Of a stretch of 43,181 nt of DNA, positions 6,646 to 34,405 are shown in pieces (position 1 is the stretch's first letter; the number at the start of each line of letters is the position of its first letter). This stretch comes from an uncultured bacterium. GTDB taxonomy: Bacteria > Muiribacteriota > Ozemobacteria > Ozemobacterales > Ozemobacteraceae. The stretch spans positions 131,261 to 174,441 of the forward strand of contig CAYRYU010000004.1 in the NCBI GenBank assembly GCA_964428355.1, given 5' to 3'. Below the pieces are notes generated by a model that did no database searches, was not told the DNA's origin, and saw only the letters and a list, made by a program, of their open reading frames with translations. The position numbers and the translations under genes were made by a program.

Positions 6646-9600
6646 TCAATCCCGAAATCGTTCGAGAATGACGAAAGCGGGGACGCGGATCTTTCCTCCG
6701 ACAAGGGGTTTCCGCTTCCATCGGGGGGAAAGAGATTTTTCCGTGAGTGGGCAGACCACAATTCCGGGCCCAGGGGCGGATTTCGTCGCCTTTTCCATCT
6801 CCGCCGAAAGGTTAACCGTTGGACCGGTGACCGTGAAGTCCTGGCGTTGACTCCCTCCTCCAAGGACTCCAAGGATGGTTCGGCCCGATCCGATTCCAAC
6901 ACCTATCCTTATCGGGAACTCACCTCTTCCCTCACGTTCCTCGTTGAACTTTGCGACTTCGGAGAGCATATTCCAGCCTGCCTGGGCGGCTCTCTCGGGT
7001 GCGGGGGGCCGCCCGTGAACAGGGAGGAAAACAGCCAGGATCGCGTCCCCGATGAACTTGTCGATGGTTCCGCCCTCACCTTCGATAACCGGTTCCATTC
7101 GAGTCAGGTACGCGTTGAGCATTCCCACGATCTCTTCGGGGGCTTTTTCCTCGGACATGGACGTGAAACCTCTGATGTCCGCCGTCAGGATCGTCGCATC
7201 GACCTTGGTCGCTTTCGGCTCCCCCCCCCTCGCGATCGCATCCATGGTCAGATCAGACAGGAAGCGGGACAAAAACTCCTTCTCGCGAAGCCCGTCGGCC
7301 ATCGAGTTGAAGGAGTTGCACAGATCTCCGATCTCATCTTCGGTCAAGGCGGGAAGCCGGGTGGTCTCCCCGCCTTCCAGGAGGTTGCCTACCCCTTCCT
7401 GAAGGGAACGGACCGGTCGGAGGAAAAAACGGGAGAAGATGAAAGCCATCAGGACAATTATTCCGACGGGATACAGAACGACTGCGTTCGAAAGTAAGGC
7501 CCCCCATGGTTTTCGGGTCCCCCGAGGATCGGGTCTTACCGAGAATGCGACGAACCCCCAATCTTTCAAGGCCCTGCCGAGAAAAATGTGGGGTCTTCCC
7601 CCGACGGTCAGTTTTCCCCGGATCTTCCCCCCTTTCATCGTAAGCCTTTTAAGAAGGCTCCGTATGCCGGGATGCGATTCAGCCCAGATCGGGAAGACGT
7701 TCGGGTTGTTGGTGAAGTAGGAGTTCATGAAGACGAGGGAAGGCTGCCCGTTTGCCAGAAAAGGTGATTCCAGGAGGGCCTTCCGCATTTCTGAAAACTC
7801 CGCCTGCCTTCTCGCGAAATTGGCCATAACGGCAAGAGGGATCTGGAAATCCTTGGAAAAAAACGTATGGAAGAAGGTCCATGTGTTTTCATGGAGGATC
7901 TGCCAGGAGTTGATCCGATCTTGGGAAAGCCATGTCTTGAGCAGTTGCATCGGATCGAACGATTGTTCGATGGTCTCGAAAACGAGGTCATCGGTAGCTT
8001 CCTCGCCGTGACCTGATTTCACTGGCCGGTCGGAATCTTTTCGGAACCTCAGACTTCGTCCAAGTTTTGCAAGGAACCGGGAAAAGAACCGGTCGGTTTT
8101 TTCAACCTGCTTTTCGTTTTCCTTCGTGGTGATGACCCTGATCGGAACCACGGGCTGGGAGGGAGGGATCAGGAAAAGCCTGTTGACATCGCCTGATGCC
8201 AGCTCGGGGATGATCTTATCCGTGAAACTTGCTGGTGGAAGCCCTTTCACCCAAACCGGATCGGATAAAACCTGCTTCAGAAGCGATACCCGGTCACTGA
8301 GACTTTTTTCCCTCACGTTCTCGAGGTTCTGGAGATCCGCCTCGAGAGAACGGAACTCCTCCATTACCGAAACATCCGAATCCCAGAGCATGCCGGAAAC
8401 CGATGTCCAGCCAAGGCCAAGGGTGGGTGCAATGCAGGTCAGGAGGCTTAGAAGAAGGAACTTGACCCCAATGGAGCTTTTTGGAGCCGGAAGCATTTCG
8501 ATCGGCTTCCCTTCACCGGGAGAATCTCCGGGAGGGATCCTCCCCGGTGGCGCAACCCCGGGGGATACGAATCCGGGGGCGGGGGAAACGGGCAGTGAGC
8601 CGGATGAAGCGGCCTCTTCAGGGGGACCCGCCTTGACACTTGGTGCTCCCTTGGTACGGCCTTCAGGAGGTTCGGGGCAACTGGTAGGGGGTGAAAGCAG
8701 TTTCAGGATACCGGAAACCGAAAGGAAGAGAGATAGGAATCCGATCGCGACAGCCATGGGGGAGCGTGCGAGGCGGAAAATGGGCGGGGAAGGATCCCAG
8801 AGTGAGATGACTCTGTCCGGGTCTCCGGGCAGACCGCTGAACGCGGCCCCACCTTCCTCCGTGAAGATCTCCCCACTGGTTTCCTGGTCCAACGCCCGTT
8901 TAAAGGCTTCCCCCAAGGACCCTGGAAATCCGGGCGGAAGAGCCGGCTTTTTCCGGGTTCCCACCCAGGAATTGAACGAAAGCTGGGTCTTGTTCTTCGA
9001 AAGCGACTCCATGAACCAGTCGCCTCTTTGAAAGAAAGCCAGGGGAACCAGGATGGCGAAGGCACCACCCCTGACAAGGGGGATCTTTTGGACAGGGAAG
9101 CTCTTGTCCCGGGTCAAGTATGAAACCGGGGCGCTGACGGGGGAGCCAGGGAAAAGGGTGCCTATCAACACCATGTAATGAGTCTTTCGGAATTGGGCTT
9201 GGACGATGGAGATCGTCGATACCCCGAAGGCGAAGGGGAACGATTTGCCGAAGAGGCTTTCCAAAGCCACCGAAAAGCGGTCCCAATTCAAGTCTGACCG
9301 GGGAATCAGGAAGGAAGACCAATCCAGGATGAGGCTCAAGCATCGGGTTTCCGTCGCGTCGAGCCCCTCCTTGTCGAGGCATCCTCCTTCCCTATCCTTC
9401 AGCATGAATTGGACGTCGCTTCCAAAGGTTTCGAGAGCCCGCTTTCGGATCGTCCCCGCGGTTTCGGGGAGCAGTTCAGCGATGTCCCTGACGGTGTCGA
9501 GAAGCGTCTCGTGGGCCAGAGATTCGGGGCTCATGCGTGCTTGGAGAAGAGGAAGCAGATACTCCCGCTCCTGGGCGACGTTGGTCACTGCCACCTGCGA

Positions 9601-9705
9601 CAAGTCAGCTTCCATGGAATCCAAAAGGGACCACTCGAGCAAAAAGACGGTGATCAGAAAAACGGGAATGGCGACTTTCAGAGTCCTTTCAGTTGCCCGT
9701 GCCAT
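6646..9705 (-). CDS. membrane-bound class III adenylate/guanylate cyclase with large extracytoplasmic sensor region, Pro-rich linker, HAMP domain and C-terminal cyclase homology domain
   Basis: CHD motifs ATILTADIRGFT, KFIGDAILAVF, RIGVGIGSGRTILGVLGGG...FTVTGPTVNLSAEME; HAMP-like LTEDEIGDLCNSFNSMADGLRE; multiple TM helices; start at ATG 9705 (MARATERTLKV, GAGG 5 nt upstream), 17-nt overlap with upstream cyclase. Confidence 0.85.
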   Translation of the reverse strand: MARATERTLKVAIPVFLITVFLLEWSLLDSMEADLSQVAVTNVAQEREYLLPLLQARMSPESLAHETLLDTVRDIAELLPETAGTIRKRALETFGSDVQFMLKDREGGCLDKEGLDATETRCLSLILDWSSFLIPRSDLNWDRFSVALESLFGKSFPFAFGVSTISIVQAQFRKTHYMVLIGTLFPGSPVSAPVSYLTRDKSFPVQKIPLVRGGAFAILVPLAFFQRGDWFMESLSKNKTQLSFNSWVGTRKKPALPPGFPGSLGEAFKRALDQETSGEIFTEEGGAAFSGLPGDPDRVISLWDPSPPIFRLARSPMAVAIGFLSLFLSVSGILKLLSPPTSCPEPPEGRTKGAPSVKAGPPEEAASSGSLPVSPAPGFVSPGVAPPGRIPPGDSPGEGKPIEMLPAPKSSIGVKFLLLSLLTCIAPTLGLGWTSVSGMLWDSDVSVMEEFRSLEADLQNLENVREKSLSDRVSLLKQVLSDPVWVKGLPPASFTDKIIPELASGDVNRLFLIPPSQPVVPIRVITTKENEKQVEKTDRFFSRFLAKLGRSLRFRKDSDRPVKSGHGEEATDDLVFETIEQSFDPMQLLKTWLSQDRINSWQILHENTWTFFHTFFSKDFQIPLAVMANFARRQAEFSEMRKALLESPFLANGQPSLVFMNSYFTNNPNVFPIWAESHPGIRSLLKRLTMKGGKIRGKLTVGGRPHIFLGRALKDWGFVAFSVRPDPRGTRKPWGALLSNAVVLYPVGIIVLMAFIFSRFFLRPVRSLQEGVGNLLEGGETTRLPALTEDEIGDLCNSFNSMADGLREKEFLSRFLSDLTMDAIARGGEPKATKVDATILTADIRGFTSMSEEKAPEEIVGMLNAYLTRMEPVIEGEGGTIDKFIGDAILAVFLPVHGRPPAPERAAQAGWNMLSEVAKFNEEREGRGEFPIRIGVGIGSGRTILGVLGGGSQRQDFTVTGPTVNLSAEMEKATKSAPGPGIVVCPLTEKSLSPRWKRKPLVGGKIRVPAFVILERFRD

Positions 9706-12508
9706 TTTCCTCTTCCAATGTGAAGATCCTGACCGGTCCGGTTCGGCCTCTGATAGCCCTGAGCGGGAGATCCCGTACGATGATCCCCGGGAACTTGGGC
9801 TCGGGAACATCGATCGTTCCGAGGACCGAGGGAAGGTCGACCGTGCCCGCGAGCTTTTCGAGGCGGGCGGCCAGGTTCACGATATCGCCGATCACGGTGA
9901 AATCCATGCGCTTCTTTTCCGACCCGATATGACCTGCCACCACTGGCCCGATTCCGAACCCGATTCCATAAGCTGGAGCAGGCAAACCCAATTGGATTCT
10001 GTTTTCTCTCCACATCCTGAGGGATTCCCTCAATTCCAACGCCGCCCTTGATATCCCGGCCTCCAGGGCCGTGCTCCCCTCTCCCTGGAAAACCGCCATC
10101 ACTGCGTCTCCCAGCATCTTGTCGATCTCCCCGCCACAACGCCCGATGGCTTCCTGGCAGCGGAGGTGGAAATCGTTCATCAGCGAAACCGCCAACTCCG
10201 GTGACAACCCCTGTTCCACGTTCCGAAAATCCCTGAGGCCCGCGAAAAGGATCCCCAGTCTTTCCCGGGAGACGCTTGCCAACGGCCTCGATGAAGCCTG
10301 CCTTATGAGCTCGGGGCGGAGGAAGGATGCCATCCGCGCTTTTTGCCGAAGGCCAACGAGCATCCAGTTGAAACTGGCCCCCAGAATTCCCAGTTCGTCC
10401 TGGCTCCTGACCGGAACTCCCGCTTCATAGTCGCCTGCGTGGACCTTGCCGATTCCGCATGTCAACTCGAGCAATGGGGTCAGGAGGAACTTCCGGAGCA
10501 ACTTTCCTGCACCAATTGCCAACGAAAGCGAGGAGAAAAAGAGAATCCCGAGGAATGGAATCGCATGCTGGGAGAAGCCCTGGACCCTTCCGGCCGGCAT
10601 GACGGCGGCAGCGACCGCGTCCATTCCACCAAGGGGCCTGCAAAGGACCAGGTATTTTTCGCCCTTGTGATCGAACTGCACGCACAGAGGTTGGCGCGTG
10701 GCTTCGGTAACATCGAGGATTCCCCGGACGAAGGGATGACGGGGCATTGCCTTGGTCCCACCCTGGAACATGGCCCGGATGAACAAGCCGTTCCTTGGGG
10801 GAAGTGACCCGAGCTTCCGTTTTATCGATTCCGCGGCGAGGGTTTCGAAGGAGAATACGAGGCAGGCTAGCGACTTGACCGAACCCTGACTGTCCCGAAC
10901 CAGGCCCGGGAAAACGACCCGTTTCTGGAACCCGGTTTCCAATCTGTGGAGTCGGTTGAGGAAAGAGTCCGCCCACCCCGCGAAACTCATCAACCCCGAT
11001 TGATGGAACTGGATTGGGGTTTCCAGAGCTTTTTCCGCCGCACCGACATCGAAGGTGAGGCTCGCGAGGGTTTGGCGAAGGACGGAGAAAGCGATGGAAA
11101 TGGTGGCCGAAAACTGTTTTCGTGGAAGGGTCGTGTCCAGGATGAATTTCCCGTCCCGGAAAATCAGCGATTGTCCGATCAGGCCGATCGGTTTGAAATG
11201 GCCCAGAACCCTGTCCATATCGCTGGGAGTCCGGACGTGGGCGAGGGAAAATGAGCCAAGGATCTTCGCCAGTTCGACCTCGACTTCTGCGAAGATGTCT
11301 GAAAGCGACTTTTCGATGCTTCCGATTTCCCGTTCGAGCCGGTTTTCCACTTCCTGACGGAGCGAAAGGTGGAGCTTGAGGGACTGCCGAAGGGTGCTGG
11401 TGGACATTGCTATCAGGGGAAACCCCGCGAGCAGTACCGTTCCGAGACTGAATTTCCCAACGAGGGAAAGCTTGGAAAAAAAACCTACCCCACCAGGGGC
11501 AGCCAGGAGCAACCCTACAGCCAGGACGAACAACCAAAGGGACCCTTGCAGACCCGTCAGCAGGGCTGGAGGGTCGAGAAATCCCCGGCCGGTGCGCTTG
11601 ATTCCGACGGTGAGGACGAGGTCCGGGTCGGTCTGCCAGAATCGCGAAAGGAAAACCGAGTCGGTGGTTTCGTATACGGGACGGCCCTTGCCTAGGTTCT
11701 CCAGAAGTCCGTGCTGGAGTCCGGGGGATATCTCGCCACCTTTGACTCCTTCTCCGGTCGACTGCCAGAACGCACCCAGGGAAACCCCCGAACCCTTACC
11801 GGCCCGGAGGAAACGTTCAACTTCCCACCCTTTTCTGGCGCGAAAAAGGGGTACCAGCGAAACCAGGGAGCCGACCGGGGGAGCTTTCCCAAAACGGAAA
11901 AGGGTCAGCGAGAGGAGATAGAGCCTGCCATCGAACAGGACTTCCATCGGACCCCGCCGGCAACCTAGCAGCCATTTCGGGTCAACCAGGTCCCCCATCC
12001 GGGTTCGGATAAGTGCCTGGGCTGCATAGCGTTCGCCTGGAGAGGGTTTTCGGGAACCGGAAAGGAAAGCCTGAAACCCCTTCCAGGCCCGAATTCCCTC
12101 CTGGGGAGGTGATTCACCTCGGGGGAACACCAGATTTCCCGCGCTGTCGAACCAGAAAAACCTGGAAGTCCGGGGGAAACGCTGCATCAACGATTTCTGG
12201 AGCTGTCCTGCGGAACCCGGGTCTAGTCTTCTTCTTCTTAGGAAATTTCTCGCGGAATCTTCCCATTTCCGGAAGGAGGTCCGTATGATCTCGACCCGGT
12301 CGGACCCGCGGATCGTTTCAGTCATGAAATACTTCGCGTTGTCGATGTCTTCGGCAGCGCATTTCCCCTCGAAAACCCGCACGATGTCCACGAGAAGCCC
12401 GTTCAGAAGCCAGGCGGGGACGACAACTCCCAGAGCGAAAAACAGAAACCCCAGGAGGCGGGAAAAGGAGGCCGGGGCGGTAGAGACCTTTTCAGTCTCC
12501 CCGGACAT
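9689..12508 (-). CDS. membrane-bound class III adenylate/guanylate cyclase with periplasmic sensor, HAMP domain and cyclase homology domain (paralog of downstream cyclase)
   Basis: CHD motifs ILFAGLRDFRNVE, KMLGDAVMAVF, GIGFGIGPVVAGHIGSEKKRMDFTVIGDIVNLAARLE; HAMP LGILGASFNWMLVGLRQK; TM helices; 17-nt overlap with upstream TPR gene. Confidence 0.85.
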   Translation of the reverse strand: MSGETEKVSTAPASFSRLLGFLFFALGVVVPAWLLNGLLVDIVRVFEGKCAAEDIDNAKYFMTETIRGSDRVEIIRTSFRKWEDSARNFLRRRRLDPGSAGQLQKSLMQRFPRTSRFFWFDSAGNLVFPRGESPPQEGIRAWKGFQAFLSGSRKPSPGERYAAQALIRTRMGDLVDPKWLLGCRRGPMEVLFDGRLYLLSLTLFRFGKAPPVGSLVSLVPLFRARKGWEVERFLRAGKGSGVSLGAFWQSTGEGVKGGEISPGLQHGLLENLGKGRPVYETTDSVFLSRFWQTDPDLVLTVGIKRTGRGFLDPPALLTGLQGSLWLFVLAVGLLLAAPGGVGFFSKLSLVGKFSLGTVLLAGFPLIAMSTSTLRQSLKLHLSLRQEVENRLEREIGSIEKSLSDIFAEVEVELAKILGSFSLAHVRTPSDMDRVLGHFKPIGLIGQSLIFRDGKFILDTTLPRKQFSATISIAFSVLRQTLASLTFDVGAAEKALETPIQFHQSGLMSFAGWADSFLNRLHRLETGFQKRVVFPGLVRDSQGSVKSLACLVFSFETLAAESIKRKLGSLPPRNGLFIRAMFQGGTKAMPRHPFVRGILDVTEATRQPLCVQFDHKGEKYLVLCRPLGGMDAVAAAVMPAGRVQGFSQHAIPFLGILFFSSLSLAIGAGKLLRKFLLTPLLELTCGIGKVHAGDYEAGVPVRSQDELGILGASFNWMLVGLRQKARMASFLRPELIRQASSRPLASVSRERLGILFAGLRDFRNVEQGLSPELAVSLMNDFHLRCQEAIGRCGGEIDKMLGDAVMAVFQGEGSTALEAGISRAALELRESLRMWRENRIQLGLPAPAYGIGFGIGPVVAGHIGSEKKRMDFTVIGDIVNLAARLEKLAGTVDLPSVLGTIDVPEPKFPGIIVRDLPLRAIRGRTGPVRIFTLEEENGTGN

Positions 12509-17601: not shown

Positions 17602-19047
17602 ATGAAACAATACGAATTCCTGAAAGGGGTATCCTTGTTTTCCGCCCTTTCCGACGACGAGCTGAAATCCTTTGCCGACAAGGCCGAAAACATCCAGTTC
17701 GTCCGTGATGCCATGATCTGCAAAGAGGGTCAGAAAGCTGATTCCATGTTCGTCATCAAATCCGGGATCGTCCAGATTTTTTGCGACGACGGAAAGGGAG
17801 GACGAAAGGTACTCACCCACCTGAAGCTTGGGGATTATTTCGGGGAAATGGCGCTCCTTACGGAAGAGCCCAGATCGGCCAGTGCTCTTGCCCTGGCCGA
17901 AACCGATGTGATCAAGATCAAGAAGGAGGACTTCCACAATGTCCTGAAAACCTCTCCGGAAGTCTCTCTCAGAATCATCCGGACCCTGTGCGACCGGTTG
18001 GCCAAGTCGAACATCGGCACACCGACCGAGAAGACCTACAACGTCTACGCGGTCATGGGTCCGGACACATCCTCGGGCAAGAGCATGTTCGCGCGCAACC
18101 TGGCCTTCGCGATGAGCAAGATCCTCGGAAAGGATGTCCTGGTCTACGATCCCAACCTGCGCGACGACAGGGTGGCCAAGTATCTTGGGGTCGAGCAGAG
18201 GTCCCGCATCATCGACGAGCTCGTCGACCGTGAGAAGATAACGGACATCAAGAAGTTCACGGTGAGGGCGCCATGCGGTCTCTTGACGATCGTCCCGCAG
18301 GAGAACGGTTTCACCGATCTCCGTCTGAAGGAGTTCCATACGTTTTCGATCATGAAGACGATCATGGACAGCTTCGAATACATCGTGGTCGACTCCAGCT
18401 CGATGTTCACCAAGGTCACGAAGGAGATCGTCCAGAGCGTTGACAAGATCCTCTACCTGATGTCGAGCAAGAATGTCTCCGTCGAGGGCCTCATCGACCA
18501 TTTCGAGGAGACCCGGCGTGGTTGGAAGGTCGATCCCAGCAAGGTTTTTTACGGAGTCAACCATATGACCGACGATCCCTCCCAGGAGGGAAAGATCACG
18601 GAAAAGGCCCGGTCCTTCATCAGGTTCGAGATGCCTTTCGAGAAGAAACTCCAGGGCCACCGGGACCCCGACACCAAGGTCCTGATCGAACGGGAACCAA
18701 ACAACCCCATCTCCGTCGTTGCCCGCGAACAGGCTGAAAAGGTTCTCTTCGACCAGGAGTTCGTGATCTTTCTCCCCACCTTCGCGGGAGATCCTTCCAA
18801 AGCCGACCATTCGAGACGGTGGGCGGACACCGGGGTCCAGGAGCTATCGGCGAAGCTTCGCAATGTCAGCCTGAAGGGGCCGGTAACCCACAACGGCGCT
18901 CCATGCCACCAGATATTCGGGAACGCCTCGAAGTGGTCCCTCAACCAGCAGGTCATCGCCGTTGTCGATTTCGCGAACAAGTTCAAGCAGGAGTTCCATC
19001 TCGAGAAGCTCACCTTCTCCCTCAATGGGCAGGAAAGCGTGGTCTGA
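17602..19047 (+). CDS. fusion protein: N-terminal cyclic-nucleotide-binding (CAP effector-type) domain + ParA/MinD/CpaE-like P-loop ATPase domain with deviant Walker A
   Basis: cNMP-binding signature LKLGDYFGEMALLTEEPRSASALA; downstream YAVMGPDTSSGKSMFARNLAFA (deviant Walker A of SIMIBI-class ATPases); strong RBS. Confidence 0.8.
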   Translation: MKQYEFLKGVSLFSALSDDELKSFADKAENIQFVRDAMICKEGQKADSMFVIKSGIVQIFCDDGKGGRKVLTHLKLGDYFGEMALLTEEPRSASALALAETDVIKIKKEDFHNVLKTSPEVSLRIIRTLCDRLAKSNIGTPTEKTYNVYAVMGPDTSSGKSMFARNLAFAMSKILGKDVLVYDPNLRDDRVAKYLGVEQRSRIIDELVDREKITDIKKFTVRAPCGLLTIVPQENGFTDLRLKEFHTFSIMKTIMDSFEYIVVDSSSMFTKVTKEIVQSVDKILYLMSSKNVSVEGLIDHFEETRRGWKVDPSKVFYGVNHMTDDPSQEGKITEKARSFIRFEMPFEKKLQGHRDPDTKVLIEREPNNPISVVAREQAEKVLFDQEFVIFLPTFAGDPSKADHSRRWADTGVQELSAKLRNVSLKGPVTHNGAPCHQIFGNASKWSLNQQVIAVVDFANKFKQEFHLEKLTFSLNGQESVV

Positions 19048-27421: not shown

Positions 27422-28000
27422 TCAGTGGATGGGGACACCTAGCGAGGGGACCTGGGGGGTGAGCATTCCACCGTTAGAAGGGGAGCCCCCGACCGGTTTC
27501 TCAACGGGAAGCATCGGAACGACAGTGGTTCCCTGGCCCGTCGTGGGGTTGAGCTGGGTGCCGCCATAACCGTAGCCGTTGTTATTGTAATTGCCGTTTC
27601 CGTATGCCCCATTGTTTCCATAGTTGGCGCCCAGGACTCCATGGATGACGCCAATCAACTGGAAAAGGCGCTGGTCGACGGCGCGGAAATCCCCCATGAC
27701 CAGGTAGAACTTGGCTTTGCTGATCCTCATCTGGATCTCCTGGACGAGAGGAACGTAAGAAGCGTCGATGATGGCTTTCTTGAGGGCGGATTGGGCATTG
27801 TTGAGATGGCCAAGGGCGGAAACATTGTCGAGTACGTTCTGGCTCAGGGAAGCCCGACACATGTGGAGGTCCTGGATCACCAGTCTCAACAGGGAGATGA
27901 TCACGACATCGTTCTGATCGACCTGGCCCTTCCATTCAAGAGCCATGATCGGAGAACAAAGGATGACGGACAACGCCGCTACCAAAAGTATGCGCTTCAT
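27422..28000 (-). CDS. secreted hypothetical protein with Gly/Asn/Tyr-rich low-complexity C-terminal region
   Basis: ATG 28000 with AGGAGG 5 nt upstream; signal peptide MKRILLVAALSVILCSPIMA; GANYGNNGAYGNGNYNNNGYGYGG. Confidence 0.7.
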   Translation of the reverse strand: MKRILLVAALSVILCSPIMALEWKGQVDQNDVVIISLLRLVIQDLHMCRASLSQNVLDNVSALGHLNNAQSALKKAIIDASYVPLVQEIQMRISKAKFYLVMGDFRAVDQRLFQLIGVIHGVLGANYGNNGAYGNGNYNNNGYGYGGTQLNPTTGQGTTVVPMLPVEKPVGGSPSNGGMLTPQVPSLGVPIH

Positions 28001-28192
28001 ACATTCCTCCTGATGCCAAACCAAAATAACTCCTCCGAACAACGGAGGCATGTAATAACTATATCATACAATCCGGGGATCCGGAAGGGTACCTCGAGGA
28101 AAGATCATTTTTCGGATGGATTTTCCAAGAAGCCTCACTTGAAAAGACCAGATCCTTGGGGTAATCTGCTGTGGAGATGTGGATTTGAATTG

Positions 28193-28741
28193 ATGGAAGA
28201 ACGAAGTGCCCCGATTCCCTCTCTCCCTGTTTCACCACGAGATGACGGGGAAGATGAGCGAACATCCGAGTCACTCTCTTTTTCCCAGAGAGGGTGGATT
28301 TCTCCACAACTCGTCGCTCTTGTTTTCCTTGGCCTTTCAATTTCGATGGTAATATCGGCATATCGATCATTGGGGCGGGAATTTTCCGGAATCATCGTCA
28401 ACAAAGCCGCGGAACCAGGGATTTCCGGCTACTTCTGGCTGACCCTGGCACCCCTCGAAACGGCAGAGGTTGCCTCCGAGCCTGTTCTTACGAAGGTTCT
28501 GAACGGGGAAATGCCTTCCAGAAGGGTGGGAGTATCGAGGATGGTCTTCAACGGAGCCCGTTTGATGCAAAGCATTTCGAAAGGGTCGTTTTCACCCTTC
28601 ATTTCGATTGATGGTGAAAGATACATCGACCTGGGAGTCCAATGGCTTCTATGGGGGATTCTGGGGATAATTGTGGCGATGATTGCTTATCGCCAGGGGT
28701 ACACGGCGCATTCTCCGGAAACCCGCCTAAATAGGCGCTGA
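28193..28741 (+). CDS. hypothetical small membrane protein (2 predicted TM helices)
   Basis: C-terminal part of ORF-track 27641..28741; N-terminal part is antisense to neighbouring gene so start placed at ATG 28193; weak RBS. Confidence 0.3.
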   Translation: MEERSAPIPSLPVSPRDDGEDERTSESLSFSQRGWISPQLVALVFLGLSISMVISAYRSLGREFSGIIVNKAAEPGISGYFWLTLAPLETAEVASEPVLTKVLNGEMPSRRVGVSRMVFNGARLMQSISKGSFSPFISIDGERYIDLGVQWLLWGILGIIVAMIAYRQGYTAHSPETRLNRR

Positions 28742-28760
28742 AAGGCCCCCGGAGAAGGAA

Positions 28761-28948
28761 AATGTGACGAAAATTTCACCCTTCGGTGCTGAAAATCAGC
28801 ACAGTTTTCAAAATGTAAACATTTTGCTCAAAAAACGCACACTTTTCCTGTATAAATCTCGCACACAATTCTTTACAAACCCTTTGAAATAGGCCATTTC
28901 GGGGGTACCGAGCGGCCAATTTCCCTCAAAAAGAGCCATTTTTGAGCA
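28761..28948. promoter_or_regulatory. cluster of four palindromes in AT-rich DNA upstream of a sigma54 promoter (candidate enhancer/UAS or IHF sites)
   Basis: GTGACGAAAATTTCAC (28765-28780, imperfect); TGCTGAAAATCAGCA (28789-28803); CAAAATGTAAACATTTTG (28812-28829, perfect 8-bp arms); CTCAAAAAGAGCCATTTTTGAG (28927-28948, perfect 8-bp arms). Confidence 0.35.
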
Positions 28949-28969
28949 ATTTTGCCCCATTTCCCGGCT

Positions 28970-28986
28970 ATGGCACGCTAGTTGCT
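28970..28986 (+). promoter_or_regulatory. sigma54 (RpoN) -24/-12 promoter
   Basis: TGGCACG-ctag-TTGCT matches consensus TGGCACG-N4-TTGCW exactly in core positions; AGGGAG RBS and ATG 29013 follow about 15 nt after predicted TSS. Confidence 0.55.
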
Positions 28987-29012
28987 GCTGTCCAGAGCAG
29001 GGAGTATGGACT

Positions 29013-29123
29013 ATGAGAAATAATACAAAAGTGCTTGCAACCTATCAGGATTACGTCCTGATCAGGATTGATCCCAAAACCAACCTCGAGGTGTGGGTAA
29101 AGCTTCCCCCAAAGGGGCGCTGA
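29013..29123 (+). CDS. 36-aa ORF downstream of sigma54 promoter (small protein or leader/sRNA; coding status uncertain)
   Basis: MRNNTKVLATYQDYVLIRIDPKTNLEVWVKLPPKGR; AGGGAG 8 nt upstream; contains direct repeat ATCAGGATT x2 and palindrome TCCTGATCAGGA; weak hairpin+T-run at about 29167-29210. Confidence 0.3.
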   Translation: MRNNTKVLATYQDYVLIRIDPKTNLEVWVKLPPKGR

Positions 29124-29491
29124 CGACCTTTCGGGCAAGTTCCCGCTTCCCAGGCTTTCAAGAAGGCCGCGAGGAATTTTTCCAAGCGGCTTTTTCCTTT
29201 GTACGCTGGACGCTTTGGAAACGGATCTTCCCTTGTTTCCAATGGCGATTTTCCGAGAAGCCTCCCAACAGACCTAGCACAGAAGCCGTGTCGCGCAAGG
29301 TATCCATGGGGACTGGAAGACTGATTGGAAGAACGAGATTCCGGGACAGTCCAGACCGAACCGCTTCGGAGTCCTGGGCTGGTTCAAGCATGACTCCGAA
29401 GCAATCCATCCGTTCGGACTAGAAAAGATTCCGGTGGACCGAACAACCTTCCGGGTTCGATTCTCCCCTTCGGGAGAACCCCCGTTGAAGA

Positions 29492-30178
29492 TCAGCGCCG
29501 CAGGTAGGCCATCGGGTTCAGGACGGTGTTCCCGCGCCTGATTTCAAAGTGCAGATGACTTCCCGTGGTTACTCCGGTGCTGCCAACGTTCCCGATGACC
29601 TGGCCGGTGACCGTGTCACCAACCCGGACATTGAGTTTCGAGCAGTGGGCATAAACCGTCGAATAACCGGAGCCATGGGCAATCTGGACCATCAGTCCAT
29701 AACCTCGCCTCCACCCGGCGTATACAACCCTTCCACCCATTGCGGGGCGGATGGCAGTTCCAGTTTTCGCCCGGATGTCGATTCCAGTATGGAAATGGAC
29801 GCCGCGCCTGCGGAAGGGGTGGACCCTTCGTCCGAACAGGGAACTGATCTCCCCGTTTACGGGAACCAGAAAGCCACGACTGGTTCTGTTCATGACAACC
29901 TCAACCTGGGGAAGGTTGATTTCCCTTCCGGGAATCACCTTTTTCCTGGGTTGGGCCGGCCGAACACGAACCTGGTAGGTCTTCACATTGCCCCTCGAGG
30001 ACGAACGGGGATCCAGGGCGTTGAAAAATGGATTGGCCTCAACTGGGACTTTCGCCCTTGGTTCCACTTTGGAATCTTTTTCGAGATCCCTGGGGTTGAA
30101 ACCCGCGTTTGCGGATCCGGGGGGGAGCAGAGAAAGGGTCAGGACACCAACGATCAGAAGAAACGATCTGAACCGCAT
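29492..30178 (-). CDS. secreted M23-family (LytM-like) metallopeptidase
   Basis: HTGIDI and HLHFE zinc-ligand motifs, signal peptide MRFRSFLLIVGVLTLSLLPPGSANA. Confidence 0.85.
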   Translation of the reverse strand: MRFRSFLLIVGVLTLSLLPPGSANAGFNPRDLEKDSKVEPRAKVPVEANPFFNALDPRSSSRGNVKTYQVRVRPAQPRKKVIPGREINLPQVEVVMNRTSRGFLVPVNGEISSLFGRRVHPFRRRGVHFHTGIDIRAKTGTAIRPAMGGRVVYAGWRRGYGLMVQIAHGSGYSTVYAHCSKLNVRVGDTVTGQVIGNVGSTGVTTGSHLHFEIRRGNTVLNPMAYLRR

Positions 30179-30552
30179 TACCTTTCCGCCGATTTGCCCG
30201 ATGGCAAGTGCCAGATCGGCGTTCCTCCTTCCTGTTGCCTACGAGGTTAGCTGACGGGTTCGGAGTTTGGAAGGCCCCCTACCCTGGAGATCCAGGGATT
30301 CACCCCAAGGACTTGGGTCCCCCGCTCTTGGTGGGCAACCAAGACTCGGCAAAAAATTTGGACAGCCATTTATAACCGAAGGATTTTCATTTGTCAACAC
30401 CTTGTTTGAGATAATACGAAAACAGACGATATTCGAAGATTTGCATCAAGAAAGAAGCGGAATTTCGCCCGAGGTACGGGCAAAATCGAATCCCCTTGGG
30501 CAAATTGCTTCGAGTTTACACGTTTCTCCAAAAGAAGTGTAAAATTGGGCCT

Positions 30553-31545
30553 ATGAAGCGGGGGTATTTTTTCCTCATCCTTTTCTTTTTCACAGTCGCC
30601 CTGATGGGTGAGAATTGTCAGGCGAATGACCCGCCCCGGGTTTTTTCCCTGCAATTCGGACAGGCCAGGGGAAATGGTCAGGTCCGTTACAAGATATCCC
30701 ATGGATCCTCTGGAGTTTCGGAAAACCCGGGTTCTGGCCCAGGCTTTTTGTGGGTCGCGCCTTCAAATCAGGAGACTCCCACCCAGGTGACTCTATTTTT
30801 TCCTGCCCTGAAACCGCCCTTCGAGAGCTCTTCGAGTTTCCTGATCACAGTGGAAACCACCTCTGAAGAAACTTTCGAAGGTTTCGATCAGCCCCGGACC
30901 GGCCCCTACTGGCTGACCTTCCGGAAGAAGGACGCGGATGGTTCGGAAGAAATGGAGAGAGCATCTCCGTTGGGAGGAACGATGCGTTTGAGCCGAATCC
31001 GGAGGTCTTTTCTTCTTGCGGGAGCTTCTTTTCAAGCCCCGGAGTTCGTTCCAAAGATCTCGATTTTCTTCCCTTCCTCCACGAGACTTTTCGGGATTGA
31101 ACTGCGCATCTGTGGCGGGTTCAGGCTGAAGCAGGAGAACGAGCGAAAGATGCTGAGATCCCTTTTCCGTCACATCCTGCGGCGCATGCCCCTTCCCTTC
31201 GAGGAAGCCCTTTTCCTGGATTGGGCTCGCGGGGAGGATTTATTGCTGAATCCCGCCGAGATAGCGCTTCACCTCGTACGGATGGAGGAGTTCCGGGGGA
31301 AGTTCTTCAGTTCGGTCGGGATCCGTCGGGGATTGGCTTCCCTGTGGTTCAGGATTTTTGGGGTCCGCATTTCCCCGGGAAGATTGGAGCATCTTTGCAG
31401 AATTGTCAGGCGGGAGGGGTTTGACCAGGGGATCGAGGAGATGTTCGAGCAAAACGTTGCCGAGCTCTGGGGAAGGTATGGATATCCGGGCTCTTCTGAA
31501 GCTCCCCTGATCGAGATCCTACCGGAGGCCGGCAATGGGAAGTGA
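30553..31545 (+). CDS. secreted hypothetical protein, co-transcribed with HAMP-PP2C sensor phosphatase
   Basis: signal peptide MKRGYFFLILFFFTVALMGENCQA; 11-nt overlap with downstream gene. Confidence 0.6.
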   Translation: MKRGYFFLILFFFTVALMGENCQANDPPRVFSLQFGQARGNGQVRYKISHGSSGVSENPGSGPGFLWVAPSNQETPTQVTLFFPALKPPFESSSSFLITVETTSEETFEGFDQPRTGPYWLTFRKKDADGSEEMERASPLGGTMRLSRIRRSFLLAGASFQAPEFVPKISIFFPSSTRLFGIELRICGGFRLKQENERKMLRSLFRHILRRMPLPFEEALFLDWARGEDLLLNPAEIALHLVRMEEFRGKFFSSVGIRRGLASLWFRIFGVRISPGRLEHLCRIVRREGFDQGIEEMFEQNVAELWGRYGYPGSSEAPLIEILPEAGNGK

Positions 31546-34405
31546 AGCACCGAGTGGCCGCAGCCCCTGGGGGAGATTTCTCTCCCTCTTCCTGTTGTTC
31601 ATCCTTTTCCCCGTTTCGCTGGGAGGTCTGCTGGTTTTCTACGCAGGCCACATCGAAGAGGAATACCGCCTTTCGAGGGAGACCGAGCGGCTGGAGATCC
31701 AACTCAGCCGTCTGGCATGCAGATACGATCCCGAGGCGTTCATCCGGAAGAAGTTCAAGTGGCTGCGGGATGCGATTTTCCGAAGATCGGTTTCCCCGGC
31801 TTCTCTCGAGGCAATTTCCCTGGAGATACGAAGGAGGTTCGGCTTTTCCTGCGAAATCTACGTCATGGATGGTCACGGAAAACTGCTGAACCCGCCCGAT
31901 TGTCATTTCCGGTCGATGAAAGCCATGGAAAGACTCTGGGGAGCAGCCATCACTCATGATCCAAAGGCGGTGGAGGAATATCGCAACGGGGGACTGAAAA
32001 TCCTCCAATCCTTTCTTGGGGATGAATTCCTTGGCAGCCGGATGCGCAAGAGCAGGGACTTCCCGATCCGGATCCGTGGCAATGGGAAGGATGGGGTCAT
32101 GTTCTGGGATCGGGACCCATACTCCCGCGGCGGGGGATTGATCATGCTCGTCCGGGAGATTCCCACCCGTCTTGGGCTTCTCAAGACCGCATTTTCCCGA
32201 AGTAGAATCGGGAAAGGAATCTCCTTTCTGGTGCAGGACCGGGGGGGAAGTATACATTCCCTGAGCGGAAAGGGGGATGAGAGGGAAAGGAACCTCCTGG
32301 TCCACCTTTTCAAGGAGGCCCGCAAGACATCGCTTGATTGGGGTGGAAAGAGGTGGGTCGCGGCCAAGCTTGGTGAGGAAACCTATTTCGCGGGGCGCGG
32401 AATGGACCTTTCCCGCATGGAAAGCAGGATGAGGGCGGTTTTCATCTTTCTGATCCTGATCGGCGTCGTCTGGACGGTGATTCTTTTCCGGTTTCTGATC
32501 CAGGGGCACGATCCTTATCTACCGATCAGGGTCAAGCTCACGGGTTTGTTTCTCTTCACTCTTCTTCTGCCGATGATGGGGGTTACCTTTCTTGCGCACA
32601 GGCTCCTGCGGGACCGCGAGGGTGTCCTGCGGAGCGGAAGCTTCCAGAGTGGAAACCAGATCCTGGGCAACATCGACTCGGGGTTCGTCGACGAAAAACA
32701 GAGGCTCGAGAAGATCTTCAAAGGCCTTCGAGACGATCCGGACCTGGTGGGCAACCTGCCCCGATTCCGGGCGAGAGTTCGCAAGCACCTCAGCAAGCTC
32801 GAGCTCAGGGTCATGTTCCTGGTGGACATGGGAGGGACGCCCGTTGTTGTGGAAGGGGACGCCCTCGAGGAGAAATCCAGATATGCGATGGAAAGCTTCT
32901 TCCGGGTTTCCATCGAAAAGAAGCTTCCCGACAGGCTTCTGCTTTTCCAAAAACTGGGAGGGAAGGGGAAACTCGCGGATGTGCTCCTGGAGGAGTTCCT
33001 CCGGGATCCGGCTTCGGGTTTTCCATATATCATGGAGCATCCAGGGACCACGCAGATGTCCAGGATCGGAAACCGTGAGGGGATTTGGTTCTGGGACGTT
33101 TTCCCCGATCCCTCCCATCCCTATGCTATGTTTTTCGTGGATTCAGACCTGGGATTCGCCATCGAAAACTTTCTCGAGCGACGGTTGAACAGGCGGGAGA
33201 GTTTCGAACAGGGGGCTTTTCGCCTGGTGGCATTCAGCCACACCCGGGAACGCTGGTTCCCTGAAGAGCTCTCATCCAATCCTTCCCTGGGGGATCTAGC
33301 GAACCGGGTGAGGATCCACAACGACGTTCTTAGGGACAGCGTCCGCATCGGGAAAGAGAACTTCCTTGTGGTCGGGATCCCGGGAAAGCATCTCCAGGGA
33401 TACTCCCTGTTCGCCCTGTTTCCGGAAAAGGTCATCCTGGAAAACCTGGCGAACCTGAAGAAATCGATCGGGATCGGGTTTTTCCTTGCTCTTGCGATGG
33501 CGGTCCTGTTGGGCCTGACTTTCAGCGAGACTTTCCTTGCGCCTGTTGCAGAGCTGACCCTGGGGGTGGAGGCGATGCACAATCACGAGACCCGTTTCCG
33601 GCTGAAGACTTTTCCCAAGGACGAACTGGGTGGCCTGGCGAAGGCTTTCAACGATATGCTGGCGAATCTGGATGAACTCCAGACTGCACGGATCATCCAG
33701 AAAGAGTTGCACCCATCGGAGGTTCTGGAGCTTGGGGAATACCGGGTTTTCGGTATTTCCCGCGCCGCAACCGACCTTGGAGGGGACTACTTCGATTACC
33801 AGGCGGTCGGAGGGAGGAACATCCTTCTCCTTTGCGGGGACGTTTCGGGTCATGGAGTGCCGGCCGCGCTGATCATGACCATGTCCAAAGCGCTTGTACA
33901 GAGGTTTTCCCTGGGCAAGGGCTCGGTTCTGGAGCTTCTGGACGACCTGAACCAGGTTTTCTTCAAGGCGGTCAAGAAGAAGCGGACCATGACCCTCGGG
34001 GCGGTCTGGATCGATACCGAGACCCATGAAGGGACATATTTCAATTGCGGTCACACTTATCCCCACCTTCTTTCGGGAGGAAAGCTCGACGAGACGGTTG
34101 CCGCCCAGGGCAGCCTCCTGGGAATCCATTCCAGGCTCAAGGTCGTCCCGAGGCCGATATCCCTGAAACCCGGACAGCGTCTTGTTTTCTACACCGACGG
34201 ACTGATCGAGTCGATCTCGGAAGACGGCGAGGATGGGTATCTGAAGTTCATCGACCATATCCAATCCCGGCCCTGGACATCGCTGAGGGAGTTCTGCCGG
34301 GACATCCTGGACAGCCACCCCTGCATCCGGAAGGGGGGAAGCCTGCCCGACGATTTCACGATCGTCATCCTCGAGCGAAAAGTCGTGGAACCAGGGGTTT
34401 CCTGA
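31535..34405 (+). CDS. multi-TM sensor protein with HAMP domain and C-terminal PP2C-type (SpoIIE/RsbU-like) Ser/Thr phosphatase domain
   Basis: GGAGG RBS; 4 TM helices; HAMP-like LGGLAKAFNDMLANLDEL; PP2C/SpoIIE motifs DLGGDYFDY, LLCGDVSGHGVPAALIMT, FYTDGLIE. Confidence 0.85.
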   Translation: MGSEAPSGRSPWGRFLSLFLLFILFPVSLGGLLVFYAGHIEEEYRLSRETERLEIQLSRLACRYDPEAFIRKKFKWLRDAIFRRSVSPASLEAISLEIRRRFGFSCEIYVMDGHGKLLNPPDCHFRSMKAMERLWGAAITHDPKAVEEYRNGGLKILQSFLGDEFLGSRMRKSRDFPIRIRGNGKDGVMFWDRDPYSRGGGLIMLVREIPTRLGLLKTAFSRSRIGKGISFLVQDRGGSIHSLSGKGDERERNLLVHLFKEARKTSLDWGGKRWVAAKLGEETYFAGRGMDLSRMESRMRAVFIFLILIGVVWTVILFRFLIQGHDPYLPIRVKLTGLFLFTLLLPMMGVTFLAHRLLRDREGVLRSGSFQSGNQILGNIDSGFVDEKQRLEKIFKGLRDDPDLVGNLPRFRARVRKHLSKLELRVMFLVDMGGTPVVVEGDALEEKSRYAMESFFRVSIEKKLPDRLLLFQKLGGKGKLADVLLEEFLRDPASGFPYIMEHPGTTQMSRIGNREGIWFWDVFPDPSHPYAMFFVDSDLGFAIENFLERRLNRRESFEQGAFRLVAFSHTRERWFPEELSSNPSLGDLANRVRIHNDVLRDSVRIGKENFLVVGIPGKHLQGYSLFALFPEKVILENLANLKKSIGIGFFLALAMAVLLGLTFSETFLAPVAELTLGVEAMHNHETRFRLKTFPKDELGGLAKAFNDMLANLDELQTARIIQKELHPSEVLELGEYRVFGISRAATDLGGDYFDYQAVGGRNILLLCGDVSGHGVPAALIMTMSKALVQRFSLGKGSVLELLDDLNQVFFKAVKKKRTMTLGAVWIDTETHEGTYFNCGHTYPHLLSGGKLDETVAAQGSLLGIHSRLKVVPRPISLKPGQRLVFYTDGLIESISEDGEDGYLKFIDHIQSRPWTSLREFCRDILDSHPCIRKGGSLPDDFTIVILERKVVEPGVS

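Follow-up and report, generated by a model that had tools for sequence, protein, structure and literature searches.

The NtrC enhancers of Escherichia coli glnAp2 are 17-bp dyads (TGCACC-N5-GGTGCA) that stand in tandem some 100-150 bp upstream of a TGGCAC-N5-TTGCA promoter and act through DNA looping. A comparable layout is found in an intergenic stretch of contig CAYRYU010000004.1, from an uncultured member of the Ozemobacteraceae, within the 43,181-nt segment (positions 131,261 to 174,441 of the contig) that is here termed the window and is numbered from its first nucleotide. As in glnAp2, 17-bp dyads with 6-bp half-sites and a 5-bp spacer are arranged in tandem upstream of a sigma-54-type promoter, but the half-sites read TGTGCA/TGCACA around an A/T-rich spacer, the activator is not encoded nearby and the target is a single 36-codon gene instead of a metabolic operon, with nothing linking the unit to nitrogen control. 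On comparative grounds, we consider it probable (roughly 0.85) that these elements make up a transcription unit that is self-contained, depends on sigma-54 and serves a small protein restricted to one lineage.

The pspG gene of E. coli and Yersinia is likewise a monocistronic sigma-54 gene with upstream activator sites, unlinked to the gene of its activator (PspF), and it encodes an integral membrane protein of 80 residues. The unit in the window resembles it as a lone small-protein gene with upstream sites and no linkage to an activator gene, whereas its product has 36 residues, is basic and predicted to be soluble, and has no sequence or fold relative. Envelope function is described as a common theme of the sigma-54 regulon (PMC4551910). 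Short sigma-54-driven transcripts are also known in the GlmY/GlmZ system (activated by GlrR from three tandem sites together with integration host factor, IHF), as well as in the Qrr small RNAs (sRNAs; activated by LuxO). The transcript predicted here would share with them its very short, monocistronic and terminator-bounded nature, a sigma-54-type promoter as the only one and two to three tandem sites, but those are regulatory RNAs, while the product in the window appears to be a protein under strong purifying selection and matches no RNA family. Finally, regulons of bacterial enhancer-binding proteins (bEBPs) have been reconstructed computationally in Desulfovibrio vulgaris (PMC4641369) and in the Clostridiales (PMC6615313), some of the targets having no annotation other than hypothetical protein. 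The evidence in those studies is of the same kind as here, that is, a conserved palindromic site and a conserved -24/-12 promoter upstream of orthologues. The activator gene is usually adjacent in those cases, and hence assignable, whereas here none is present in the 43-kb window or within up to 10 kb in the relatives.

Conservation of the unit in related loci

Identical sequences of both the 36-residue protein and the product of the convergent M23 peptidase gene are present on public metagenome contigs. When species-representative genomes were searched with the M23 protein, the top-scoring matches came from uncultured Candidatus Ozemobacteraceae, a family that lies within the candidate phylum Riflebacteria (PMC11879220). 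Four of these loci, found without reference to the peptide, all encode a homologue of the 36-residue open reading frame (ORF) just beyond the M23 gene, with 66-79% identity. A search with degenerate DNA encoding the motif L[EQ]VWVKLPP recovered 22 further metagenome loci with the ORF, together with 7 chance matches. About 30 non-redundant related loci preserve the promoter, the upstream sites and the ORF as a set. This bears out the core of what a first-pass annotation had read in the window, namely a sigma-54 promoter with upstream activator sites and a small ORF, the activator being encoded elsewhere; the features that it had listed (promoter, palindromes, Shine-Dalgarno sequence, ORF and repeats) were all found again, at most 1-2 nt from where it had placed them.

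The sigma-54 promoter

The unit lies in a 750-bp intergenic stretch that runs from the stop of an upstream + strand gene (28741) to the stop of the convergent M23 gene (29492), and the first 230 bp of this stretch are AT-rich. GC content is 39.8% for 28760-28960 and 42.8% for 28742-28970, as compared with 47% over the full 28741-29210 span of the first-pass annotation and 56.9% over the whole window. The island of about 40% GC described there is hence recovered in 28760-28960, but its background is closer to 57% than to the 60% proposed.

The promoter TGGCACGCTAGTTGCT (28971-28986, + strand) carries its GG (28972-28973) and GC (28984-28985) dinucleotides exactly 10 bp apart within TGGCAC-N5-TTGCW, and the predicted transcription start lies near 28997, given that sigma-54 transcripts begin some 12 nt past the GC. 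A consensus mismatch scan for sigma-54 sites over the window returned it as the sole exact match to TGGCACG-N4-TTGCW, the five other matches having two mismatches each; by our own calculation, an exact match would be expected by chance about 0.003 times in 2 x 43 kb. The earlier description of TGGCACG-N4-TTGCT as a textbook RpoN promoter is therefore upheld. Among the related loci, the search pattern TGG[CT]A-N7-TGC, for which we estimate a chance rate of about 0.3% per locus, occurs 40-68 nt 5' of the orthologous ATG in all 32 loci with enough upstream DNA, a set that includes the four genome loci found independently through M23 and divergent members recovered with the protein profile. Positions outside the search pattern, namely the pyrimidine that follows TGGCA and the leading T of TTGC, are invariant in all 27 distinct promoters. 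When the closest relatives are aligned, the promoter and the ORF emerge as islands of conservation within intergenic DNA that is otherwise unalignable, and the element is kept at its orthologous position although its flanks diverge.

These data bear on the possibility that the sigma-54 match and the palindromes upstream of it arose by chance in AT-rich DNA, the ORF being transcribed from a sigma-70 promoter or by read-through from upstream. AT-rich DNA readily forms palindromes, and the terminator scanner revealed no evident terminator between the stop of the upstream gene (28741) and the ORF, so that some read-through may occur. Against this stand the uniqueness of the exact consensus in the window and the persistence of the -24/-12 element in every locus between flanks that diverge completely. 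Furthermore, the promoter scanner found no + strand sigma-70-like site upstream of the ORF, and in locus L116 the ORF is convergent with the membrane-protein gene that precedes it in the window, so that read-through cannot be its conserved mode of expression. With the scores of the upstream dyads added (see below), a chance origin becomes very improbable.

Upstream dyads and putative activator sites

A recurrent 17-mer, TGTGCA-N5-TGCACA (symmetrized consensus TGTGCA-AAATT-TGCACA), is present in two to three copies in all loci, at about -105 to -285 relative to the promoter. In most loci these dyads form tandem pairs 18-24 bp apart, and a third copy is often located some 40 bp further upstream. 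Their specificity was assessed with a leave-one-out scheme, in which each of 27 non-redundant loci was scored with a matrix built from all other loci: in 27 of 27 cases the best score in the -300 to -60 region was higher than that of any of the 1027 segments of 240 nt that served as background and were drawn from the same loci. The dyads are, then, arranged in tandem upstream of the promoter, specific to this region and conserved among orthologues, as would be expected of enhancers, whose dyad-symmetric sites usually stand in tandem some 80-200 bp upstream, and not of chance palindromes.

In the window, the five highest matrix scores of the whole 43 kb all fall inside 28787-28865, where three putative activator sites can be placed at -184, -146 and -122, that is, 105-185 bp 5' of the -24 element. 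The second site (TGCTCAAAAAACGCACA, 28825-28841, 15.8 bits) is the top match of the window to the family dyad. Its counterpart in three close relatives (L120, L122 and L124), in which the surrounding intergenic DNA is unconserved, is TGTTCAAAAAAAGCACA. The third (TGTATAAATCTCGCACA, 28849-28865, 11.8 bits) lies 24 bp from it, start to start, and aligns with TGTATATTTTCAG(G/C)(A/G)CA in the same three loci. The first (TGCTGAAAATCAGCACA, 28787-28803, 11.3 bits) is the distal member of the cluster, and locus L096 has a third site at the equivalent position, 39 bp upstream of its site pair. Two overlapping weaker dyad matches occur inside 28805-28830. Between the sites and the promoter, an AT-rich spacer (28866-28970) that is unconserved even in close relatives presumably provides the looping DNA; it holds one of the palindromes discussed below and a weak dyad match at 28932-28948 (9.7 bits). 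This layout agrees with what is generally described for upstream activating sequences: a typical distance of about 100-150 bp from the promoter and a need for DNA looping (PMC7057263).

The first-pass annotation had listed four palindromes as typical of bEBP/IHF architectures. Palindromes whose perfect arms reach 7 bp or more are indeed in excess here, with five instances (nested arms counted) against 0.12 in composition-matched shuffles (P ~0.0005), so that perfect-arm palindromes are about 40-fold commoner in the island than in shuffles. Their correspondence with the conserved sites is nonetheless uneven. The second palindrome (GTGCTGAAAATCAGCAC, 28786-28802, 7-bp arms) coincides with the first conserved site. 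The third (CAAAATGTAAACATTTTG, 28809-28826) and the fourth (CTCAAAAAGAGCCATTTTTGAG, 28925-28946), which do possess the perfect 8-bp arms attributed to two of the four, overlap weaker dyad matches, and the first (GTGACGAAAATTTCAC, 28764-28779) has arms of only 4 bp and is not conserved. The list had also missed the best-conserved site, at 28825-28841, and its partner at 28849-28865.

A small protein gene

A Shine-Dalgarno sequence, AGGGAG (29000-29005, + strand), precedes by 7 nt the ATG of the gene for a 36-residue basic protein, MRNNTKVLATYQDYVLIRIDPKTNLEVWVKLPPKGR (29013-29123, + strand), both being present downstream of the promoter as had been described, and purine-rich sequences of the same kind occupy the same place in the relatives, which encode homologues of similar length. 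A comparison of 23 distinct coding sequences over their gap-free core of 27 codons shows variation in 14 first, 5 second and 26 third codon positions, and dN/dS (the ratio of nonsynonymous to synonymous substitution rates) is about 0.07 with dS saturated; nine of these codons (L[EQ]VWVKLPP) belong to the metagenome search pattern, so that their conservation in that subset of loci was built into the search. This bias does not touch the remaining 18 codons, nor the loci reached through M23 or with the protein profile, and these present the same codon pattern. By the criterion of substitution in the translated frame, the 36-codon ORF is a genuine protein gene under strong purifying selection.

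This pattern also decides against a different view of the ORF, raised in the first-pass annotation, according to which the transcript would be a non-coding sRNA or structured leader and the ORF would be incidental. The two internal elements on which that view was based are present in the window: the direct repeat ATCAGGATT occurs at 29044-29052 and 29061-29069 and the 12-bp palindrome TCCTGATCAGGA at 29056-29067, both inside the ORF, and the minimum free energy (MFE) fold of the transcript pairs this region. Short RNAs driven by sigma-54, such as Qrr and GlmY/GlmZ, also exist, Qrr1 being treated in PMC10162802. In most relatives, however, synonymous substitutions have removed both the repeat and the palindrome, whereas the Shine-Dalgarno sequence and the ATG are kept everywhere and amino acids are retained while third positions vary in 26 of 27 codons. 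The fold z-score of the transcript is only -1.8, and covariance models from Rfam gave no match in 28741-29491 or in eight related loci. Because substitutions follow the codon pattern and the repeat and palindrome are unconserved, we reject the sRNA or leader alternative, which we regard as scarcely credible.

The homologue search that the first-pass annotation had suggested revealed a distinct family, in keeping with the conservation of the region in related genomes. A profile search of 5.8 billion proteins, with a query alignment whose first row was extended by seven native in-frame upstream codons, yielded 34 clusters with a native length of 31-36 residues, the few longer entries (41-66 aa) being upstream-extended gene calls. 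The few clusters that bear names are called hypothetical, and those with an organism name come from Riflebacteria. Neither Pfam nor NCBIfam holds a family for the peptide, and no Pfam domain was detected in any of the 34 clusters. Similarly, an exhaustive HMMER search of 1.84 billion representatives returned only four clusters, of 31-48 aa, and no relatives inside larger proteins. As far as these comparisons reach, the family is real, tiny and lineage-restricted, and it is no fragment of a larger protein.

The AlphaFold2 model, built on a 30-sequence alignment, predicts a three-stranded beta meander spanning residues 9-30, with a predicted local distance difference test (pLDDT) score of 84 overall and 94-95 in the core. 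A Foldseek comparison of this model with the PDB returned nothing better than E = 8.5, and no solved structure resembles it. Members of the family have a median net charge of +3, lack cysteines and lack any hydrophobic segment (maximum 19-residue hydropathy, 0.22), and conservation is uniform along the chain. Tryptic peptides of the protein in the window include VLATYQDYVLIR and TNLEVWVK. These properties are relevant to the question of whether the ORF might encode the precursor of a ribosomally synthesized and post-translationally modified peptide (RiPP), another secreted or signal peptide, or a type I toxin, a notion with which a length of 31-36 residues and tight regulation are superficially in agreement. 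No signal peptide or transmembrane (TM) segment is present, the absence of cysteines is coupled to a confidently predicted compact beta fold over nearly the whole chain, and there is no split between leader and core. The conserved neighbors, moreover, are a TPR protein, MazG, shikimate kinase, two lineage-specific proteins and the M23 peptidase, and include no radical-SAM, cyclodehydratase, lanthipeptide, protease-transporter or antitoxin genes. A product of this type is accordingly most unlikely.

Predicted transcript end and autonomy of the module

Downstream of the ORF, a candidate intrinsic terminator (29161-29200, + strand) consists of a GGCCGC...GCGGC stem followed by TTTTTCCTTT, the MFE fold placing the hairpin at 29161-29195, and a second, weaker hairpin with TTTT is found around 29208-29250. 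In 25 of 29 related loci, a T run comes immediately after a hairpin of -8 kcal/mol or lower, no more than 260 nt from the ORF stop, the hairpin of the window being weaker than those of many relatives. The 368 bp that separate the peptide gene from the M23 stop (29124-29491) are unconserved, including the roughly 290 bp beyond the terminator, and the corresponding spacers of the relatives mostly measure about 100-340 bp. A 109-residue ORF at 29093-29422 is equally unconserved and matches no family. The 368-bp stretch contains a hairpin with 14-bp arms at 29363-29402 and, on the - strand, a weak terminator-like site for the M23 gene at 29430-29443.

The first-pass annotation had pointed out that the transcript would run towards the M23 gene, and the convergent orientation is indeed found in the window and in most relatives, the M23 gene being in the closer clade under a cyclic di-AMP (c-di-AMP) riboswitch. 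It could be argued on this basis that antisense control of, or transcriptional interference with, the M23 gene is the real function of the unit and that the peptide is secondary. Terminator-like hairpins with T runs nevertheless lie between the ORF and M23 in the 25 loci mentioned above, the ORF-M23 spacer ranges from about 100 to more than 3000 bp, and such a function would not account for the strong purifying selection that acts on the peptide. Genomic rearrangements lead to the same conclusion. L116 (4810-6646) carries a clean small inversion confined to the sites, promoter and ORF, which are intact and still flanked by the same neighbors (the M23 and membrane-protein genes), and the ORF there follows M23 in tandem; L115 lacks M23 and, of the neighbors, retains just the membrane-protein gene; and L102/L104 keep the module without either neighbor. 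Because of the inversion, the changes of context, the candidate terminators and the unconserved 3' DNA, neither a leader role nor an antisense role on M23 is likely, and we assign the latter a very small probability. By the same comparison, the module of sites, promoter and ORF is autonomous.

Proposed mechanism and search for the activator

Comparison among loci establishes the promoter, the dyad sites with their position and the coding nature of the ORF, and in every respect that sequence can address the control region belongs to the class of sigma-54 promoters with bEBP enhancers, while the product falls in no described family. From this we infer dependence on sigma-54 and a bEBP in vivo, as well as the start site, the DNA looping and the termination. 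A bEBP encoded elsewhere in the genome would bind the two to three TGTGCA-N5-TGCACA dyads in 28787-28865, the intervening AT-rich DNA would loop, and the ATPase of the bEBP would open the closed complex of sigma-54 RNA polymerase at 28971-28986. Transcription would then proceed from near 28997 through a 16-nt leader with the Shine-Dalgarno sequence, the ORF would be translated into a basic, soluble and cysteine-free protein with a predicted small beta-meander fold, and the monocistronic transcript of about 200 nt would end at the hairpin and U tract around 29161-29200.

Several observations weigh against this interpretation. As the first-pass annotation had already remarked, the window contains no bEBP gene, and regular expressions for GAFTGA and Walker A motifs, tblastn (with the caveat that its query, the central domain of NtrC, was entered by hand) and a Pfam search of the larger ORFs agree on this point. 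Regular expressions and tblastn, applied to all 125 sequences collected, also failed to detect a bEBP gene in the related loci, which amount to about 337 kb and reach up to 10 kb around the module. The expectation that the upstream sites would recur near other RpoN promoters was not borne out in the same 337 kb, which contain five loose promoter matches, none of them with the dyad. An exact IHF consensus (WATCAA-N4-TTR) is absent from both strands of 28701-29000; an IHF site between enhancer and promoter is frequent without being obligatory, the spacer is AT-rich, and the lineage may have IHF or HU preferences of its own. At the 3' end, the hairpin of the window has a fold z-score of only -1.8, modestly better than shuffles, and the consensus terminator scanner did not list it at 29161-29195. 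To these must be added the share of codon conservation imposed by the search pattern and the fact that the support for a sigma-54 unit is comparative throughout. In the literature on Riflebacteria and Ozemobacter, on small proteins driven by sigma-54 and on TGTGCA/TGCACA sites, we found no description of such a unit or of a matching regulator.

Neighboring genes and possible role

The gene order around the module (TPR protein, MazG, shikimate kinase, a 209-residue secreted protein on the - strand, a two-TM membrane protein on the + strand, the module on the + strand and the M23 peptidase on the - strand) is strongly kept among relatives. The most constant neighbor is the upstream gene (28193-28741, + strand), which codes for a 182-residue membrane protein with two predicted TM helices, corresponding to hydrophobic segments at 36-58 and 145-166, and which is treated here as context and not as part of the unit. 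It adjoins the module in almost every locus, even in L115 and L116 with their lost or rearranged synteny, but not in L102/L104. Its family comprises 38 clusters, of which the few with an organism name are from Riflebacteria, and it has no counterpart in Pfam or NCBIfam. The model of the protein (pLDDT 84) consists of a TM helical hairpin with a beta-rich loop domain of about 85 residues. The matching public Logan contig misses this gene and lists a 65-residue ORF on the opposite strand instead, and the 366-residue ORF of the program-made ORF list extends too far, running into the neighboring - strand gene.

On the other side of the module, the M23 peptidase gene (29492-30178, - strand), convergent with the ORF, is directly led by a full-length c-di-AMP riboswitch of the ydaO type (RF00379; 30220-30361, - strand; 103 bits). 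This riboswitch is kept before M23 in L004, L120 and L122, and is absent in the more distant L005, L007, L113, L116 and L118. In locus L006 (7154-8099), an M23 homologue is followed by an apparent VapBC-type toxin-antitoxin pair, and no peptide gene is found in the 946 bp there. Further away, the 209-residue protein encoded at 27422-28051 (- strand), conserved in synteny among relatives, has an N-terminal hydrophobic segment and a tail rich in Gly, Asn and Tyr. Neither this protein nor a 349-residue protein encoded at 30496-31545 (+ strand) was matched by Pfam or NCBIfam; the gene for the latter lies directly upstream of a HAMP-SpoIIE phosphatase gene (31535-34405). Elsewhere in the window, two large tandem genes that code for proteins with HAMP and adenylate/guanylate cyclase domains (6646-12508, - strand, and 17602-19047, + strand) lie near a gene for a cyclic-nucleotide-binding protein and make up a cyclic-nucleotide signaling cluster.

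The constant membrane-protein neighbor and the presence next door of an M23 gene under a c-di-AMP riboswitch hint that the role of the peptide may be envelope-related, perhaps by way of binding to the membrane protein, but this suggestion, drawn from gene adjacency, is a tentative one that we hold to be unlikely as it stands. The two families are of similar size (34 and 38 clusters). As a low-confidence guess, the peptide could be a cytoplasmic small-protein effector that is made only on a bEBP signal and binds an envelope-connected partner, for which the adjacent two-helix membrane protein might be the leading candidate. Two observations speak against this guess: fold searches with the models of the peptide and of the membrane protein gave no informative match, and L102/L104 carry the module without the membrane-protein neighbor. 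A still more specific proposal, that the peptide is the dedicated and perhaps sole output of a sigma-54/bEBP pathway of Riflebacteria, switching, as a new class of small-protein effector that answers to the signal of the activator, the membrane protein or the c-di-AMP-controlled M23 hydrolase, is more doubtful again.

Implications

The regulatory architecture of this unit is ordinary, and its novelty resides in a new small-protein family, specific to Riflebacteria, that possesses a dedicated sigma-54 switch. Annotation tends to miss small proteins, and for few of them is the regulatory context clear, whereas in this case the control region is unusually complete and conserved. Gene calls on the matching public contig are corrected as well, since from these the gene for the 182-residue membrane protein is missing. 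This protein, given its co-occurrence with the module, is a concrete candidate partner for the peptide, and the dyad motif can be used to fish for the cognate enhancer-binding protein. Riflebacteria, a phylum without cultivated members, have been encountered in anaerobic digesters and in waters of the subsurface, and the unit provides a clean reporter of a signaling pathway in organisms that cannot yet be grown. If true, a circuit leading from a signal to a small protein and from there to an envelope enzyme would be one without a described counterpart.

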